DNA of 59,659 nucleotides from a virus. Lineage: Duplodnaviria > Caudoviricetes. The notes under the pieces are model-generated. The model worked only from the letters and a program-made list of their open reading frames with translations, searched no databases and had not been told where the DNA came from. The stretch is from positions 1-59,659 of the IMG/VR virus record IMGVR_UViG_3300027889_000037. The stretch is one strand, 5' to 3'. Positions 31,493 through 47,083 of the stretch are shown here, piece after piece (the first letter of the stretch is position 1; each line of letters opens with the position of its first letter). The position numbers and the translations under genes are program-made.

Positions 31493-33752
31493 CATTATTG
31501 TTGCGCTATTCTGCTCGCCCGCGCTGGCGCAAAATGGTGCGCCGGTCAAGCAGGGAGGTAACGTCACTCCTACGCATGTCGGCGCGTGGACAACGAACGG
31601 CGTTCTTCAGGACGGCGGAACCGCGGCAATTCCCTTTCTCACCTCGATCGGCACCGTCTACAACGGCCCCTCGATCTGCGCCTGGAGTGCCTTGTCTACG
31701 TCAGGAGCGGCGCAGGAGCTGTGCCTGGGCGCGACCAATGCCGGCGGCGCCACGATCACCGTGCAGAACTTCGGCTCGGCTACGGCACTGCCTCTCTCGC
31801 TCAGCCTCAATGGTACGATATACCAGTTTCCCTTTTCCACGAGCGGCGTGATTGGGCCGGTCACCACGATCATCAACGACGGCGCCTGCTGGGGCAATAC
31901 AACCGGCACGCTCCTGAAAGAGTGCGCGCCGCTGGTTTTACTGAATGGCACATCAAATGGCGTTTGGTGGAAAAACGTCAGTGGGACGCCAGACGCGTCG
32001 ATTGCTGAATCGTCGGGTAACAGCCTCCTTATAAAAACTCCAAGTGCGACAAATACCGGTGTCATTACCGATTCGCTCGGTAACCCTATGCTGACTATGT
32101 ACGGGGAGCAACCCAGCAATGGTGCATGGTCGTTCAACCTCACCAGCGGTCATTGCGGTATCGGCGATGAAGATCTGACTGTTACTGGGACGCCTACAGC
32201 GACCGAACAGCCAGGGTTTACCTACACGATTGGCTCAACAACTGCGACTGTGACATACACGGTCCAGCCGGGCGATACCAATAATAGCATCGCAACCGGT
32301 CTAGCGGCGGCGGCACAAGCAAACACGATTTTCAAATCACTCGTCAACGGCACTTGCCCGGACGGAAACACCTACAATGGTGCGATCACAGCCGTATTTC
32401 TTGGTAACGCGCAGATGGGGTTTGACCCTATCTGGTCCGCCAATCCAACCGCAGGCGGAAATAGTTTTAGCGGTATCAACTCGACGCACACGACAATCAC
32501 GACTTTCCCGATCAATGAATTGACCGGTGCGCTTTATCGTTCGGATAATTCGTTCGTCGCAGGACGCAATGCCGCAGTAAATGATAACCCGTTTCAGTAC
32601 CAACTTCTTTACCAAGACAGTACCGGCGCTTCCGCCGTCTATTGGTCCGAAACGGTTCTTGCCCATAGCGTGACTCCGGGGGCGACCACACCAGATGTGA
32701 ACTGGAGTTTTGGCGGTGTCTGCGCGTATGATTGGCTGGTAAATACCGGACAAGCGTTTTTCGAAGCCAGCGCTGGCTGCGATCTAAATCTCGTCGCCAA
32801 CGATTCTACAACTAACAACGTTAATGTTGCGACCGGCAGCGCTGGAGCGATTAATCTTCGTGCCGGGAGCGGGGGGGTAATCGCTGGCAATGGTACTATC
32901 GTCGGCCAATATTGTGTGACCAACGCAACGTCAGGCTCGATTTGCCTCAAACCGCCAACCGGCGCACTCGGCACCCAGACCCTCACACTGCCCGACGCAA
33001 CGGACACGCTGACCGGCAAGGCGACGACCGACACGCTGACCAACAAGACCATCGTTTCCTCGACCGACACGCTGGGCGGCGTGACCATGGGGCTTGGATC
33101 GGACGCGACCGGCGACATCTACTACCGCAATTCGGGTGGTCAGCTTGCCCGGTTGCCGATCGGTTCGACCAACCAACAGCTCGCCGTGGCTGGCGGGCTC
33201 CCGGCATGGACAGCAAGCACTAATTCGATGGCCTATCTCTGCACCATCACCGCCAGCAATTCCACGTCCCTTAACAACGCCTCGCCCACATCCGGCTCGT
33301 GTCCGCTTAATGGCACCTATACATCTTATGAGCTTCGTTTTCATAATATCGTTCCGGCGAGCAATGAAAAAATCCTGGAAATTCAAGTTCACTCCAGCGG
33401 TTCCTACCAGGCTACGGGCTATATCACTTCGCAAAATTTTTGCGCGAACAGTACCTGTGCGGGTGGCAACCCGACGACGTACATTCCGCTTTCCTACCCG
33501 TCCGATGCCAACGCCGCGGCTCTACAAAATGCCGCACCTGGATTTACCGGTACCGTCACGATTACAACTCCGTCAATCAGCGGACTGATAAGCGTAGTTA
33601 CCTACGGTGGCTATCTTGATGGTGGTGGGCTTGCCGGTACTAGCACGGGGTTCGGCTATTGGAATACCCCCGGTGTCGTTGATGGCTTCCAAGTCCTGAT
33701 GGACTCTGGTAATATCGCCTCTGGTTCGATCTTCGTGTATGGGATTCAGTGA
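31476..33752 (+). CDS. Tail fibre / receptor-binding protein
   Basis: TLTLPDATDTL..TDTLTNKT, GDIYYRNSGGQLARLPIGS fibre motifs. Confidence 0.75.
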   Translation: MNRFLSIIVALFCSPALAQNGAPVKQGGNVTPTHVGAWTTNGVLQDGGTAAIPFLTSIGTVYNGPSICAWSALSTSGAAQELCLGATNAGGATITVQNFGSATALPLSLSLNGTIYQFPFSTSGVIGPVTTIINDGACWGNTTGTLLKECAPLVLLNGTSNGVWWKNVSGTPDASIAESSGNSLLIKTPSATNTGVITDSLGNPMLTMYGEQPSNGAWSFNLTSGHCGIGDEDLTVTGTPTATEQPGFTYTIGSTTATVTYTVQPGDTNNSIATGLAAAAQANTIFKSLVNGTCPDGNTYNGAITAVFLGNAQMGFDPIWSANPTAGGNSFSGINSTHTTITTFPINELTGALYRSDNSFVAGRNAAVNDNPFQYQLLYQDSTGASAVYWSETVLAHSVTPGATTPDVNWSFGGVCAYDWLVNTGQAFFEASAGCDLNLVANDSTTNNVNVATGSAGAINLRAGSGGVIAGNGTIVGQYCVTNATSGSICLKPPTGALGTQTLTLPDATDTLTGKATTDTLTNKTIVSSTDTLGGVTMGLGSDATGDIYYRNSGGQLARLPIGSTNQQLAVAGGLPAWTASTNSMAYLCTITASNSTSLNNASPTSGSCPLNGTYTSYELRFHNIVPASNEKILEIQVHSSGSYQATGYITSQNFCANSTCAGGNPTTYIPLSYPSDANAAALQNAAPGFTGTVTITTPSISGLISVVTYGGYLDGGGLAGTSTGFGYWNTPGVVDGFQVLMDSGNIASGSIFVYGIQ

Positions 33753-39714: not shown

Positions 39715-39903
39715 TCATTCGGCAACAACGGTTTCAAGAGCGCGTAAAGCATATCGCGCGTTTATTTCGCGCGTCGAAGCCTCGTTCACGGCTTTGTTTG
39801 CTGCCTGCAATTCCGCGATCACCTTAGATTGGTATTCGACCATGGCGGCATATGAGCGCTCGGCACATTCTAGTTCCAGTCTGGCGGCTTCAAGTTTTGT
39901 CAT
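39715..39903 (-). CDS. Coiled-coil hypothetical protein
   Basis: TGATG coupling to recombinase gene. Confidence 0.55.
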   Translation of the reverse strand: MTKLEAARLELECAERSYAAMVEYQSKVIAELQAANKAVNEASTREINARYALRALETVVAE

Positions 39904-40901
39904 CACGCCACCTTCTCGCTGCTCTTTTCCATCCGCATCCGCTGCACGGTATGGGTGTTCTCCCGGCTGGCGCGGCTGTAGTCCATTGTCTGCGATACGT
40001 CGCTGTGTGTAGCGGCATCGCGGACATGCGCAGCCTGGGCGCCCATGGCGATGGCTTCGCTGATCGCACCGGCCCGCGCGTCGCGGTTTTGCACATTCAA
40101 CGGCACGCCACACTCGGTCGCGATGATCCGCCATTCTTCGCGGAAGTCATCGGCTTTATATGGGAAGCCGGTGTATTCATCGATAATCACGGGGCCGCTC
40201 GCCGGCAGCAATAATCGATCGGCAGAGCATCCCGGCCACATATGCTCAAGCTCGGCCATGACCAGCGGCGCCAATGTCAGGTCCGGCTCGGATAGTTTCT
40301 TGCGCTTGCTCGTGACGTGATGGACGACAAAATCAGCGCCGATTTCTTCCCAGCGCAGACCCTTGAGCCACTTCATTGGACCTTTTCGCGGGTGCATCGA
40401 GCAAACGTCCGACAGGCCCGGTTCGCCAATCGGCAGCCATTCGCCGAGAACGTCCTTCTGCCGCCAAGTGCATTCAAATTGGAGGGCCTGTGCGAGCCCG
40501 ACCATCGGGAGGCGCGGGCGCGCGGCGTTGCAAATCGCGGTTGCTTGCTCGCGGGTGATGTGGACCGTTCGCGGCTTGCCGTTGGCGAAGCGGCCTTTGC
40601 TCAGTAGCAGCCCGAGGCGCTGGCAGGCTTCGTCATCGAGCGCGAAGAAGCCGAAGTTGGCGAGCGTGCGCAGCATCCCGATCAGCGCATGGCCCATCGA
40701 AACCTTCCGGCCGCCGTCGCTCCATTGCTGATGCCATTCGTAGATCGTCCGGCCCTTGATGGTCGCCACATCTACGTCGCCGTGGGCGCGCTCGATCTGT
40801 GTCATGAGCCGGACGTAGTATTGCCGCGTGCAGTATTCGAGCTTGGCGAAGTTCGATACTGGGTCGGTGCGGTAAGCGGACATGAGTTCATTGAGACGCA
40901 T
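39903..40901 (-). CDS. Tyrosine recombinase/integrase (no N-terminal arm-binding domain)
   Basis: R (CTWRQKD), K (TSKR), NRDARAG, ATHS, MDYSR catalytic-type residues. Confidence 0.8.
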   Translation of the reverse strand: MRLNELMSAYRTDPVSNFAKLEYCTRQYYVRLMTQIERAHGDVDVATIKGRTIYEWHQQWSDGGRKVSMGHALIGMLRTLANFGFFALDDEACQRLGLLLSKGRFANGKPRTVHITREQATAICNAARPRLPMVGLAQALQFECTWRQKDVLGEWLPIGEPGLSDVCSMHPRKGPMKWLKGLRWEEIGADFVVHHVTSKRKKLSEPDLTLAPLVMAELEHMWPGCSADRLLLPASGPVIIDEYTGFPYKADDFREEWRIIATECGVPLNVQNRDARAGAISEAIAMGAQAAHVRDAATHSDVSQTMDYSRASRENTHTVQRMRMEKSSEKVA

Positions 40902-41320: not shown

Positions 41321-41767
41321 TCAGTTAACCGCCAACTCCCACAGCGGCGGAAATAGATCGTCGGGTATGGCGAACATCCCCTGCTGGCCCCTATATGGAA
41401 TTGGCTCGGTCAGCAGATGAAAGTCGCTGCGCTCCCAAGCATAGCGGCCTTCCGAAAAATCTCCGCACTCGCGATCATCGTCATTCGCTGCTGTACACCC
41501 AAACAGTTCATGCACTGTCGGCTTGCAGGCAACGATCTTGACCGCGCCAATGATAGCGCCGCGCGGCAATTCCAGGCCCCAATGATTTCCCCAAATACCA
41601 TCACAGATTTCATCAAGGCGGTCGCCGCTGAAATCATCGATCCGGCGCTTGGCGGCATGAACGGCAAGCCATCCGCGATGCGAAGTGGGCCAGTGGCGCG
41701 TCTCATGGACTTTGGCGTCGGATAGCCAAAGCGACGCCCACGGTTGCCAGAGTGAAATTGCCTTCAT
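41321..41767 (-). CDS. ASCH domain protein
   Basis: MKAISLWQPWASL...K.HETRHW...RG.LAVHAA...PIPYRGQQG. Confidence 0.9.
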   Translation of the reverse strand: MKAISLWQPWASLWLSDAKVHETRHWPTSHRGWLAVHAAKRRIDDFSGDRLDEICDGIWGNHWGLELPRGAIIGAVKIVACKPTVHELFGCTAANDDDRECGDFSEGRYAWERSDFHLLTEPIPYRGQQGMFAIPDDLFPPLWELAVN

Positions 41768-41803: not shown

Positions 41804-42862
41804 TTAAGCCGCAGCCTCTTTACGTGCGGCGATCATGCCGCGCAGTTCTTGTTTACTCTCTGGGGACATCGAATAGCCGCGACCCCAATGGGTCTCAATT
41901 TGCAACCCATGCGGTTCAATCTTTGCTCTGATTTTGCAAACGAACACGTCCACAATTTTAATCTCTGGCGCATCATCCGCCCGATCCGAATAAAGGGCAG
42001 TCAAGATCGCCTCTTTGGACATGATGTCGCGCGAGAGCAACGCGGACACGACACGTTCCTCGCTTGCAGTCAGCTTTAGTTCCGGCGGCAACAGTTCTTT
42101 GCCGTTCATTGTTTCTTCAAGCATTCTAACACGTTCGCGCAATTCTTCATTTTCTTCCTCTACCAGAGAGCGACGCAAGGCAGGATCATGCTTGAAGCGT
42201 CCGAAACTCTCCCACGATTCGTTGATGGCCTCTGCCATATATTTGATGTGTTCGCCTAGCAGAGCAGAAGCCGAAACGGCTTCTTCATTGCTGTATTTTT
42301 GAACCCACTCGACAAGCTCACCAAGCGCACCATTTATTGGAATAGGCGCTGCATCGGCCAAGTCTGCGCGAAACTCGGCCACCTGATTGAAGATCGGAAC
42401 CAAGAACGACTTTGCGTTTTGAAACGCTGCAAGATGAGAATACTTGACCCGCCACGCGTCCACTTCGCGGAGTGCAGCCAAGATTTCATCGTTCGGCGAG
42501 CGGACAATTTCAATTGACCGCTCGTCCTCGTCCCAACCGGCCGCGTCGCCTTCGTGCTGCTTAACCGCAACACGGTAGGCTCGTGTCGCATATTCCTTGC
42601 CTTCGCTGACAAAGCGCACGCGCACAGCGTTTATCATGTGGTTGGCTTGGCCGACGCGATATTGATGGGCGGCTTTTTTATCGTCCCACTCAAAATAGCC
42701 GCGTAGCGGGCTGTTGGCGGAGTGGGCAGCCTGCACAACAGCTTCCGCCGTCACATCGCCATCTGTCGCAATCTCTTGGAGCACAGGGCCAATGGCCCGC
42801 GCATCGTCGTTGGAGAACGACGATCCAGTTAGGGCAAAGTATTCTTTGATCGATATAGTCAT
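41804..42862 (-). CDS. Two-domain protein: N-terminal phage domain (SPL..YFEWDD..AA..YR) fused to OmpR/CtrA-like winged-helix DNA-binding domain
   Basis: C-terminal PEIKIVDVFVCKIRAKI...IETHWGRGY closely resembles the CtrA C-terminus. Confidence 0.8.
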   Translation of the reverse strand: MTISIKEYFALTGSSFSNDDARAIGPVLQEIATDGDVTAEAVVQAAHSANSPLRGYFEWDDKKAAHQYRVGQANHMINAVRVRFVSEGKEYATRAYRVAVKQHEGDAAGWDEDERSIEIVRSPNDEILAALREVDAWRVKYSHLAAFQNAKSFLVPIFNQVAEFRADLADAAPIPINGALGELVEWVQKYSNEEAVSASALLGEHIKYMAEAINESWESFGRFKHDPALRRSLVEEENEELRERVRMLEETMNGKELLPPELKLTASEERVVSALLSRDIMSKEAILTALYSDRADDAPEIKIVDVFVCKIRAKIEPHGLQIETHWGRGYSMSPESKQELRGMIAARKEAAA

Positions 42863-43307
42863 GTCATTTCGATTGTCGTGTCGGCATTGCTACGCGCGTC
42901 TCTGCAACTCAAATCGGCTCTTTTGGTAAAGGGCCAAACAAAACATTTCTTCTCAGTTGTTCGGTTGTCCATTGTCGTCGCATGTAAGCTTTTCTTATCA
43001 AATGACAAAGGGACAAAACTTTTCATTTCATCGGTCGTGTCGTCTTTGCATCGGTTCTCGCGTGTCATCGGCTCGGCGGTTCTCGCTTCTGCTCTTATGA
43101 TAAATGGACAAACAATTCATTTGCTTTCGGATGTTTTGTCATCGGCTCTTCTCTCAGCAAGTCTCCTGGTAAATGGACAAACATTTCATTTCAGTTGACC
43201 GCTCGTCCTTTCAAAGCACATCAGGGATTTTGGCCTCTTTTCTTATATCTCGTCTGAGGTCTTCTGGTCGGTTCAACGCATAGCAAATCGACTCTGCTCT
43301 TGTGTTT
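42859..43307 (-). ncRNA. Pentamer-periodic non-coding array (6 blocks, 77 pentamers), candidate guide-RNA array
   Basis: On + strand 76/77 pentamers begin [TG][CG] (43 are TC); blocks at 42859, 42948, 43023, 43117, 43186, 43248. Confidence 0.85.
42924..43190. repeat. Four conserved linker repeats TGRYAAAKGGMCAAAC..WCATT separating array blocks
   Basis: Copies at 42924-42947, 43003-43027, 43098-43121, 43167-43190. Confidence 0.85.
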
Positions 43308-43936
43308 TATCCCGCCTTGGCCCGCACTTTCGAATGGACTTCGGTGGAATCCTTCAAAACGAACTGGCCGAACACGCCGTTAAGCTCGGGGCGCCATGCG
43401 CCGAACCCTACCGCGAATCCGGCAATCTGGAAAAGGTTGAGAATCTGCGCCGGGCCGATGATGCCCGCGTTATACACAACCGGGATTTCCATTTCCCACG
43501 GCCAGAACGAGGGCCGATAGGCGATGCTGGTCACGCCACCTTGGAGGCGCACGGTGTCGGTTCGCATGGTCGGCGGCGGGGATTTGATTTCGATCAAGCT
43601 GCCCAGGATATTGATGGCGCCGCGAAGGTGCGTCATCTTTTCGTCGGCGAACCGTCCGCCGGCAACCACGAGGCACTTTTTGATGCCGATGGACGGATAG
43701 CCGAACGTGCCGTCAAGATCAGTCTTGCCCGCCTTGATGACGTGCAGCTTTTCAACAAACTCAGCGTGCGGGTCGCGGGCTTCCTTGACGCCCTTGGCTT
43801 TCTTTTGCTGCTTGTTCTCAATCGACGTGATGGCATTCTCGCCAAATCGATTAGTCAAAAGCGGGCTGGTGCCGACCACCTTGACGGTAATTCGGTCCAA
43901 TTTGATCTCTGGAATTTCAATCGTCCGTTCGGCCAT
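43307..43936 (-). CDS. Stand-alone RAMP/Cas7 (Csm3-like) RNA-binding protein
   Basis: ITVKVVGTSPLL first strand, YPSIGIKKCL (cf. IPGSSLKG), C-terminal G-rich loop GFAVGFGAWRPELNGVFGQF; AGGAGG RBS. Confidence 0.75.
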   Translation of the reverse strand: MAERTIEIPEIKLDRITVKVVGTSPLLTNRFGENAITSIENKQQKKAKGVKEARDPHAEFVEKLHVIKAGKTDLDGTFGYPSIGIKKCLVVAGGRFADEKMTHLRGAINILGSLIEIKSPPPTMRTDTVRLQGGVTSIAYRPSFWPWEMEIPVVYNAGIIGPAQILNLFQIAGFAVGFGAWRPELNGVFGQFVLKDSTEVHSKVRAKAG

Positions 43937-46520: not shown

Positions 46521-46688
46521 TTACTCCTTAGTCTTGGGTTGTTCAAAAATTTCTTTGGGCAACGTCTTTTCGTAAATAATGTGATCGCCGTAGCCCATCC
46601 AGATCACATCAACTGTCGTTTCGCCAACTGCTTTTACCGTCATCCGGGATGAACCGGAAGGAAGTGCAAGCACGTCTCCAACTTTCAT
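46521..46688 (-). CDS. YodC/DUF2158-like small protein (not in ORF track)
   Basis: MKVGDVLALPSGSSRMTV...VIW. Confidence 0.65.
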   Translation of the reverse strand: MKVGDVLALPSGSSRMTVKAVGETTVDVIWMGYGDHIIYEKTLPKEIFEQPKTKE

Positions 46689-47083
46689 CACGACCTCCTG
46701 ATATTCACCCTATTAAAATAGCTGACCTCAATACCAGGAGGCGGCTGGTTCTTGTTGTCTTCCAGATACTGCTTGAGCGCGTCCTTCTGCGGTGCGCCGA
46801 CTTGCAGCAGCTCATTGCCGATGGCGTCCCAGTTCTCGTTCACGAAATCGAGGTACTTGTCGCGGTCGATCACCTTGGGAGTGGTGATGGTCGAGATGTA
46901 CGCGGTGCCATTGTCCGTAGACATAGAGTTTTGCTTCTGTTCGTGCATCATGCCGAGCAGGATGCCCTTGATCTCGTCCATGCGCTTCTTGTGCGGGGCA
47001 AGGTGTTCGGCGAAGCGCTTGGACTCAGCAGCGCACCAATCGTCCAGCTTGGTGTGTTCGGCGATAAGTTCAGCGGCATTCAT
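46688..47083 (-). CDS. Conserved phage replication-module protein
   Basis: Coiled coil + STDNGTAY...PPPGI...VNIRRS. Confidence 0.7.
   Translation of the reverse strand: MNAAELIAEHTKLDDWCAAESKRFAEHLAPHKKRMDEIKGILLGMMHEQKQNSMSTDNGTAYISTITTPKVIDRDKYLDFVNENWDAIGNELLQVGAPQKDALKQYLEDNKNQPPPGIEVSYFNRVNIRRS

Follow-up and report, generated by a model that had tools for sequence, protein, structure and literature searches.

The phage record IMGVR_UViG_3300027889_000037 (59,659 nt, CheckV completeness 92%; the whole of this stretch is called here the window) hosts on its minus strand a locus that is very probably a VIPR system of a temperate phage. The system would be formed by a vipr gene, an array of guide RNAs (vrRNAs) and a vap gene, with guides 1 and 6 of the array aimed at the most conserved motifs in transposase genes of the IS1595 and IS1 families of insertion sequences (ISs), and likely silencing them. 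VIPR systems, published in 2026 preprints, are known in detail from phages of E. coli and Pseudomonas whose guides are of the GGY/NN type. They are described as CRISPR-like RNA-guided DNA silencers made of a RAMP protein (Vipr), vrRNAs and a vap gene (10.64898/2026.04.26.720920). According to the same source a vrRNA consists of 9-16 YNNGG units and a 3' tail, and the NN dinucleotides pair with DNA, one base being skipped. The assignment of the window locus is based, within this analysis, on protein homology and fold, on the pentamer code of the array, on residue differences among Vipr proteins, and on transposase matches evaluated with controls.

43307..43936, minus strand: vipr gene, encoding a 209-aa RAMP/Cas7-like Vipr (open reading frame and homology)
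42863..43306, minus strand: vrRNA array of 444 nt, six guide tracts of H-G-(A>C)-N-N pentamers
41804..42862, minus strand: vap gene, 352 aa (phrog_15946, E 1.1e-14)
41870..42082, minus strand: OmpR/PhoB-type, CtrA-like winged-helix DNA-binding domain, Vap residues 261-331 (PF00486, E 2.8e-9)

A first-pass annotation, made from the letters of the DNA, had described three co-oriented minus-strand elements without gaps, and the coordinates of the open reading frames and of the array bear this out. The first read pentamer begins 1 nt past the TAA of the 209-aa gene, and the final one stops 4 nt short of the ATG of the 352-aa gene. Neither cas genes nor classical CRISPR repeats had been recognised by that annotation. 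Likewise, no Cas1, no Rfam family (CRISPR repeats included) and no CRISPR-like tandem array were detected in the 59,659-nt record, and on these grounds the locus does not qualify as a class 1 CRISPR-Cas system.

The array, its code and the Vipr protein

A 5-nt rhythm is evident in the array. On the minus strand, G-G autocorrelation counts are 52, 40 and 47 at lags 5, 10 and 15, versus 6-36 at the remaining lags up to 15. The sum over the three lags (139) was reached by 0/5000 first-order Markov simulations (76.1 +/- 12.1), and the region has the top autocorrelation ratio among all 444-nt windows of the record. Period-5 Fourier power over the whole array is 1.17, under the shuffle maximum of 2.94, and Tandem Repeats Finder reports nothing in the array. 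Both miss the rhythm because its phase shifts between units. A phase-tracking script resolves the array into six pentamer tracts parted by A/U-rich elements. Four of these elements are conserved and come after guides 2 to 5, as tails. A repeat search finds them within an element of about 50 nt, present in four copies at a spacing of 79, 95 and 69 nt.

43251..43305, minus strand: guide 1, 11 pentamers (extent from target matches)
43184..43243, minus strand: guide 2, about 12 pentamers (boundaries by analogy)
43115..43169, minus strand: guide 3, about 11 pentamers (boundaries by analogy)
43021..43100, minus strand: guide 4, about 16 pentamers (boundaries by analogy)
42946..42995, minus strand: guide 5, about 10 pentamers (boundaries by analogy)
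42867..42926, minus strand: guide 6, 12 pentamers (extent from target matches)
43142..43191, minus strand: inter-guide element copy 1, repeat family D1 (end of guide 2, tail, start of guide 3)
43073..43122, minus strand: inter-guide element copy 2, repeat family D1
42978..43027, minus strand: inter-guide element copy 3, repeat family D1
42899..42948, minus strand: inter-guide element copy 4, repeat family D1

The pentamer unit was derived from 189 pentamers in 19 guide tracts, found in this phage and in two close relatives, L001 and the sister phage L002. It fits the formula H-G-(A>C)-N-N. Position 1 is A in 78 pentamers, C in 40, T in 56 and G in 15; position 2, whose G was used as anchor to set the phase, is G in 141, C in 41, T in 5 and A in 2; position 3 is A in 134, C in 48, T in 7 and never G. 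Information content is about 1 bit at position 2 and at position 3, and falls to 0.05 and 0.07 bits at positions 4 and 5, which are close to random. The canonical GGY/NN (YNNGG) consensus is not matched, as G is found at position 1 in 15/189 pentamers only. Triplets that overlap the TGH/NN type are TGA (29/189) and TGC (20/189).

Guides are in part shared among the three phages. Guides 1 and 6, the first and the last, are common to the window phage and the sister phage; guide 2 is orthologous to guide 2 of L002, and guide 5 and guide 6 of L001 have identical read dinucleotides in the 8 variable pentamers compared. Across 46 pentamers, drawn from five pairs of orthologous guides, 12, 6, 11, 4 and 2 substitutions have been counted at positions 1 to 5, respectively. 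Positions 4-5 are the best kept (6/92 sites changed versus 29/138 at positions 1-3; Fisher p 0.0025), as expected if these positions specify the target. Position 1 was considered as a third read base, and rejected because it varies freely among orthologous guides (12/46 pentamers). It equals the skipped target base at 1/8 positions of one target, as judged by eye.

No fold is apparent in the array. RNAalifold assigned 0 pairs, and no consensus fold, to 13 inter-guide elements from the three phages. Single array units fold like shuffles (z from -1.6 to +0.8), and no hammerhead or other Rfam family was detected in the array.

The protein encoded upstream has a single phmmer match in the PDB, the SUSP1 Vipr protein (36pp_D, E 7.9e-4), and the alignment spans the thumb and the G-loop. 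It also matches phrog_4652 (E 1.4e-19), a PHROG of unknown function, and has no match in Pfam, NCBIfam and PADLOC. An AlphaFold2 model built from 23 homologues has a predicted local distance difference test (pLDDT) score of 76.1, and its best Foldseek matches are Csm3, Cmr4 and Cas7 (E 1.9e-6 to 1e-4, template modelling score about 0.45-0.53). Homology and the predicted model together identify the 209-aa protein as a homologue of Vipr that has a Cas7-like fold.

The first-pass annotation had anticipated much of this picture. It had proposed a RAMP/Cas7-like protein, for which it asked a fold check, and an array of 5-nt units, each with an (A/C/U)GA-like constant triplet and a variable dinucleotide. 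The fold check, the autocorrelation and the pentamer logo all agree with it, and the spacing of the inter-guide elements fits the units of about 70-95 nt that it expected. Its comparison with VIPR, in a differently coded variant, is corroborated by the Vipr homology and by the unit H-G-(A>C)-N-N, which is not GGY/NN.

Code and protein may be related. In the SUSP1 Vipr, H17 and D177 are reported to read G1 of the repeat, R138 and W178 to hold G2, and a pocket to accommodate Y3 (10.64898/2026.04.26.720927). The window Vipr is about 21% identical to SUSP1 Vipr overall. R141, W181 and R182 are kept, matching SUSP1 R138, W178 and R179, and N29 and A180 are aligned to H17 and D177. Across nine aligned Viprs, R141 and R182 are retained, and so is W181 except for a Y in one protein. 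N is combined with A or S in 4/4 aligned clade members (window, L003, L004 and L008, S being found in L008), whose arrays are of the x-G-(A/C) type, and H with D or E in 5/5 aligned Viprs located beside GGY arrays. The first G of GGY is plausibly not required here because its readers H17/D177 are replaced by N29/A180, and loss of the G1 pocket fits with loss of G1 in the repeat. The tie between the lost first G and the swapped reader residues would provide a testable rule for predicting the repeat code from the Vipr sequence. F178 (versus I178) was considered as the cause of A at position 3, and rejected, as L004 has F and yet mostly C at that position.

Transposase genes matched by guides 1 and 6

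Targets have been searched with patterns in which the read dinucleotides are separated by one skipped base, according to the published 1-nt-skip rule. The nine dinucleotides of guide 1 have 20 exact matches in the viral_contigs collection; control patterns (0-skip, 2-skip and reversed) have 0, 1 and 0 matches, respectively. Most matches (18/20) fall at one motif, R-[E/D]-L-G-V-T-Y-K-T-A-[W/H], in IS1595-family proteins of about 300 aa. DDE_Tnp_IS1595 was found in all four scanned representatives of these 18 matches, and Zn_ribbon_IS1595 in three of them. Each read dinucleotide is the antisense of the first two bases of a codon in R-E-L-G-V-T-Y-K-T-A-W, the helix-turn-helix motif of IS1595-family transposases, and the genes run on the strand opposite to the match. 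The 18 matches include 17 distinct site sequences, in which the skipped bases are wobble positions and vary. The two 5' pentamers of guide 1 left outside the searched pattern match in 17/18 and 18/18 sites, and matching is 0/18 beyond either end.

The ten dinucleotides of guide 6 have 18 exact matches in the metagenome_contigs collection. Of these, 16 are in the context M-R-R-[F/L]-T-R-L-T-N-x-[F/H/L]-[S/P/N]-K (searched as a regular expression) of the IS1 family. The guide is antisense to codon positions 1-2 of [L/F]-M-R-R-F-T-R-L-T-N-A-F in IS1-family transposases, and DDE_Tnp_IS1 (PF03400) was identified at the site in one of the two representatives scanned. Here too, the two 5' pentamers outside the searched pattern match, in 16/18 and 11/18 sites. 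Such unsearched pentamers had initially been taken for a constant handle. Just past both ends of guides 1 and 6 matching drops to 0-1/18, and this sharp stop, with the flanking matches, sets the two guides at 43251-43305 and 42867-42926. At both targets the skipped bases are third codon positions. The idea of the first-pass annotation, that a held triplet and an exposed dinucleotide would make a non-contiguous guide, finds sequence-level backing in these natural matches in 1-nt-skip register, which suggest that the 1-nt-skip rule, with skips at wobble positions, extends to a non-GGY code.

L001 and L002 have first guides that are the same as guide 1 except in the dinucleotides for motif residues 2 and 9, and a back-translation of all three by hand would give R-[E/T/A]-L-G-V-T-Y-K-[T/S]-A-W. 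An IS1-family gene of the Lichenihabitans metagenome-assembled genome (MAG) G005 matches guide 6 at 22/24 bases, both mismatches being in the last pentamer. This MAG itself carries a related VIPR locus, L007, and Lichenihabitans is the probable host genus. The genome of the sister phage (G002) contains the C-terminal half of an IS1595 transposase, which lacks the guide 1 site (C1:37441-37671; L073 about 1501-1731). The remnant, a 126-aa open frame covering PF12762 positions 76-153, looks like the trace of an IS insertion in the phage lineage.

No IS1595 or IS1 gene is found in the window, and no self-targets are found there with 0-, 1- or 2-nt skips. With the same skips, no targets above shuffled guides were detected in the window plus four related phage genomes. 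The first-pass annotation had supposed a silencing of competing phages or host genes. A silencing role is retained here as likely, and the expected targets have changed: none is found in the five clade phage genomes searched, and the identifiable ones are transposase genes of ISs.

As a side observation, guides 1, 4 and 6 open with a semi-constant pair of pentamers ending in AGAGC (minus strand, 43296-43300, 43091-43095 and 42917-42921), and variants are found at the start of guides 2, 3 and 5. The GC of AGAGC sits on an alanine codon in both identified targets. The AGAGC start could be a constraint similar to a protospacer adjacent motif, or the product of chance, the cases being two only.

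The guide is the complement of the gene's sense strand in 2/2 instances with identified targets. This is what one would see if the Vipr-vrRNA filament bound the transposase mRNA, not DNA, and worked as an antisense-type silencer. Two cases, however, cannot show a strand bias, and VIPR complexes are reported to bind double-stranded DNA and to silence whichever strand the guide matches (10.64898/2026.04.26.720920; 10.64898/2026.04.26.720927). Action on mRNA is accordingly held improbable.

The remaining guides have been searched as well. For guide 4, the viral and metagenome contigs contain 0 exact matches, and 401 genomes from the order to which G005 belongs contain 5 matches at 3 mismatches, versus 4 for the control. 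In two Lichenihabitans MAGs guide 3 has no match, and guide 5 has 2 matches versus 1 control match. Guide 2 has in the same MAGs one 17/20 match, in wobble register, within a large glycosyltransferase-like gene (L077, G005:C13:10336-10364). This site is not counted as a target, since about 0.4 such matches are expected by chance (estimate). On the transposase loci, guides other than the matching one have no match.

Several data speak against a VIPR system directed to transposase genes. The PDB sequence match of Vipr (E 7.9e-4) and the pLDDT of its model (76) are both moderate. The contrast between N/A and H/D residues is one clade-level change, not repeated covariation. For SUSP1, silencing is reported to be lost with D177A, and purines to be kept out of the position-3 pocket (10.64898/2026.04.26.720927). 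A180 and A at position 3 are natural here, and RNA contacts must therefore differ, other contacts compensating. The inter-guide tails have no conserved fold, whereas the SUSP1 tail is reported as a pseudoknot. Scans of the contig collections covered exact matches only. Guide 6 has 0 matches in viral_contigs, and the control patterns scanned against its 18 matches' counterparts in viral_contigs were those of guide 1, in viral_contigs only. In two Lichenihabitans MAGs, IS1595 copies match guide 1 at just 12-14/18 bases, yet at the orthologous site. Finally, four of the six guides (2-5) have no target in the sequences searched.

The last two points would also fit a genuine VIPR system that does not work on the matched transposase genes. 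It would act on genes of competing phages, satellites or plasmids that the collections searched lack, and the IS motifs would be matched just because these conserved peptides are so abundant. The natural VIPR targets published so far are satellites and prophages (10.64898/2026.04.26.720920). Moreover, the 18 IS1595 matches come from viral contigs of G+C 0.35-0.68, and most of these therefore cannot be from the host of this phage. Against this stand the 20 matches of guide 1 versus 0, 1 and 0 in control patterns, the matching of pentamers that flank the searched pattern, and the landing of two independent guides on transposases. The differences of the L001 and L002 first guides, confined to two motif residues, and the 22/24 site in the Lichenihabitans MAG point in the same direction. 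Targets of other kinds are thus considered rather unlikely.

A VIPR system that silences transposase genes is the preferred reading, and for it we infer the following course of transcription, filament formation, DNA binding, silencing and benefit. By homology with SUSP1, the array would be transcribed from the minus strand together with vipr and vap, and then cut into units. Vipr protomers would coat the RNA, one per pentamer, holding the G of position 2 and the A or C that follows it, and leaving positions 4-5 exposed. The dinucleotides would pair with DNA, every third target base being skipped, and the bound transposase genes would be blocked in transcription. One guide could cover many diverged transposase copies, because only codon positions 1-2 would be read. 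Silencing may immobilise ISs that compete with the phage or invade it, and Vap, with its CtrA-like winged helix, would be an accessory DNA-binding partner. For SUSP1, VIPR is reported to immobilise a satellite by targeting, in the gene of the satellite's excision recombinase, the codon positions that do not vary (10.64898/2026.10.15.759431).

Possibly, and this is put forward as a tentative proposal, the Vipr clade is a phage-borne broad-spectrum brake on ISs. An entire IS family, irrespective of codon usage, would be silenced by one guide, and the phage or prophage would be protected from IS invasion. The code would be a reduced one, with a single G read per pentamer and the G1 pocket lost. 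The IS1595 remnant in the sister phage is recorded here beside this proposal. The matches point to IS transposases as natural VIPR targets. Transposases or ISs in this role were not found in the main texts of the VIPR preprints, a scope that leaves out the supplementary target tables and the structural companion. If true, phages would use RNA-guided silencing against transposable elements, and compact guides would be at hand for recognising a protein motif whatever its synonymous codons.

Vap and the phage setting

The N-terminal part of Vap (about residues 1-235) has counterparts in the genes adjoining vipr in related phages and in actinobacterial phages. BLASTP matches include the L004 neighbour (3e-37), UmaThurman gp41 (9e-13) and Quico gp58 (3e-11), and no similarity was found to the vap1 of SUSP1-like phages. 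In SUSP1 itself, silencing is reported to depend on vap1. The AlphaFold2 model has a pLDDT of 72.6. With Foldseek, the N-terminal part has no match in the PDB, and the winged helix matches the DNA-binding domains of response regulators (root-mean-square deviation about 2 A over about 74 residues). The best NCBIfam match of the domain is the DNA-binding part of CtrA, an alphaproteobacterial cell-cycle regulator (E 3.3e-11). The partner gene with a DNA-binding domain noted in the first-pass annotation is thus recognised as encoding a winged helix, and an accessory vap with a predicted DNA-interacting function is present beside the array, as suggested by homology to vipr neighbours and by this domain. 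Homologues are labelled 'CtrA' in sources, though they have no receiver domain. The full CtrA box TTAA-N7-TTAA has 0 occurrences in the window, 0.26 being expected.

Among ten vipr-neighbour genes scanned, the winged helix is found in L001 and L002 only, in addition to the window Vap. It is also present in the closest full-length database homologues of Vap (P0122-P0134). The Vap homologue of L007 (3777-4652) ends with a zinc-finger-like stretch (zf-FPG_IleRS, E 4.7e-4, just below cut-off). The C-terminal DNA-binding module of Vap therefore seems to vary within the clade.

A DNA-binding domain encoded next to four direct repeats of about 50 nt, spaced by 69-95 nt, might suggest that the intergenic repeats are iterons or operators, bound at the DNA level by the winged-helix protein or another regulator, and not guide RNAs. 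Arrays are, however, kept in relatives that lack the winged helix, matches of the variable dinucleotides to coding motifs elsewhere depend on the 1-nt-skip register, and the adjacent protein is homologous to an RNA-binding RAMP. Operators are on this evidence a most improbable explanation of the repeats, and the vrRNA array is retained.

Three neighbouring genes have the same orientation as the VIPR locus.

39903..40901, minus strand: integrase-like (tyrosine-integrase-like) gene (phrog_1, E 2.6e-7)
41321..41767, minus strand: ASCH-domain-like gene (phrog_3193)
46688..47083, minus strand: Mu Gam-like end-protection gene

The integrase-like and Mu Gam-like genes place the VIPR locus in the early region of a temperate phage. 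Judging from gene content and orientation, the locus is within a long minus-strand early operon.

Relatives and published VIPR systems

Among 257 candidate Vipr homologues, 156 have E <= 1e-3, and they are mostly metagenomic. In isolated phages, tblastn identified 39 records, all below 60% identity: 27 from Mycobacterium phages, 5 from Gordonia, 3 from Pseudomonas and 2 from Listonella phages, one cyanophage and one Escherichia phage. Genes of Gordonia and Mycobacterium phages have E values from 8e-25 to 2e-18 among the matches listed. L001 and L002, whose Viprs are 98% and 91% identical to the window protein, have the same layout and code. L004, L003, L007 and L008, with Viprs 70-59% identical, feature shorter arrays of x-G-C-N-N units; L007 and L008 come from Lichenihabitans MAGs. 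In L006 (Vipr 37% identical) a canonical GGC/NN array is found directly downstream, and in L009 to L012 canonical arrays adjoin the Vipr gene. As proposed in the first-pass annotation, homologues were checked for adjacent pentamer arrays, which are present at L001-L004 and L006-L012.

Canonical GGY/NN arrays are hosted by the SUSP1-like phage LNA6, UmaThurman, Quico and LESphi2. In the Gordonia phage UmaThurman, vipr, array and a homologous vap follow the same order as in the window. The array (L010 2608-2972, about 33330-33694 of the record) lies between gp39 (Vipr) and gp41 (Vap). The gp40 coding sequence of the UmaThurman record NC_031249, annotated as a hypothetical protein (L010 2640-2963), coincides with this GGC/GGT-NN array, and gp40 is probably a vrRNA array, not a gene.

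The window locus is not a new kind of system, because VIPR has been published and non-GGY units are in print. Seven VIPR types have been described, for which 'a related consensus' is allowed, and the repeats NNNGG, YNNNG and NNNNG are named (10.64898/2026.04.26.720920). The x-G-C-N-N units of L003, L004, L007 and L008 fit the YNNNG repeat. Non-GGY clusters of the types GAC/NN, CAC/NN, WGT/NN and TGH/NN have also been reported (10.64898/2026.10.21.760802). Like these, compared here by their text description only, the window locus has a constant part that departs from GGY beside a Vipr-like fold. Unlike these, it has A, C or T at near-equal frequency at position 1, and mostly a purine at position 3.

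Class 1 CRISPR systems based on Cas7 differ from the window locus, which lacks CRISPR repeats, Cas1 and other cas genes, and has a non-contiguous guide. Csm3, Cmr4 and type VII Cas7 share with the Vipr model the predicted fold, and one subunit per fixed RNA step would be expected in all; identity is 8-14%, and the step is 5 nt in the window versus 6 nt.

UmaThurman gp39-41 and Quico gp57-58 encode Viprs that are 32-33% identical to the window protein over at least 92% of the length, and the vipr neighbour encodes a homologue of the N-terminal part of the window Vap. They differ in having canonical GGC/GGT-NN arrays, Viprs that keep H and D/E, and Vaps of 140-151 aa without winged helix.

The type II VIPR of SUSP1, as far as it is described in the preprints, differs from the window locus in the unit (GGY/NN versus H-G-(A>C)-N-N) and in the residues H17/D177 versus N29/A180. 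The window vap is unrelated to vap1, the array is located between vipr and vap, and the tail has no predicted pseudoknot or hairpin. The two systems are alike in the small stand-alone RAMP with thumb and G-loop, in the kept R/W/R residues, and in the 5-nt units with two variable bases, assembled in units of about 70-100 nt. Both are phage-borne, without cas genes, and in both the 1-nt-skip register puts the skipped bases on codon wobble positions.

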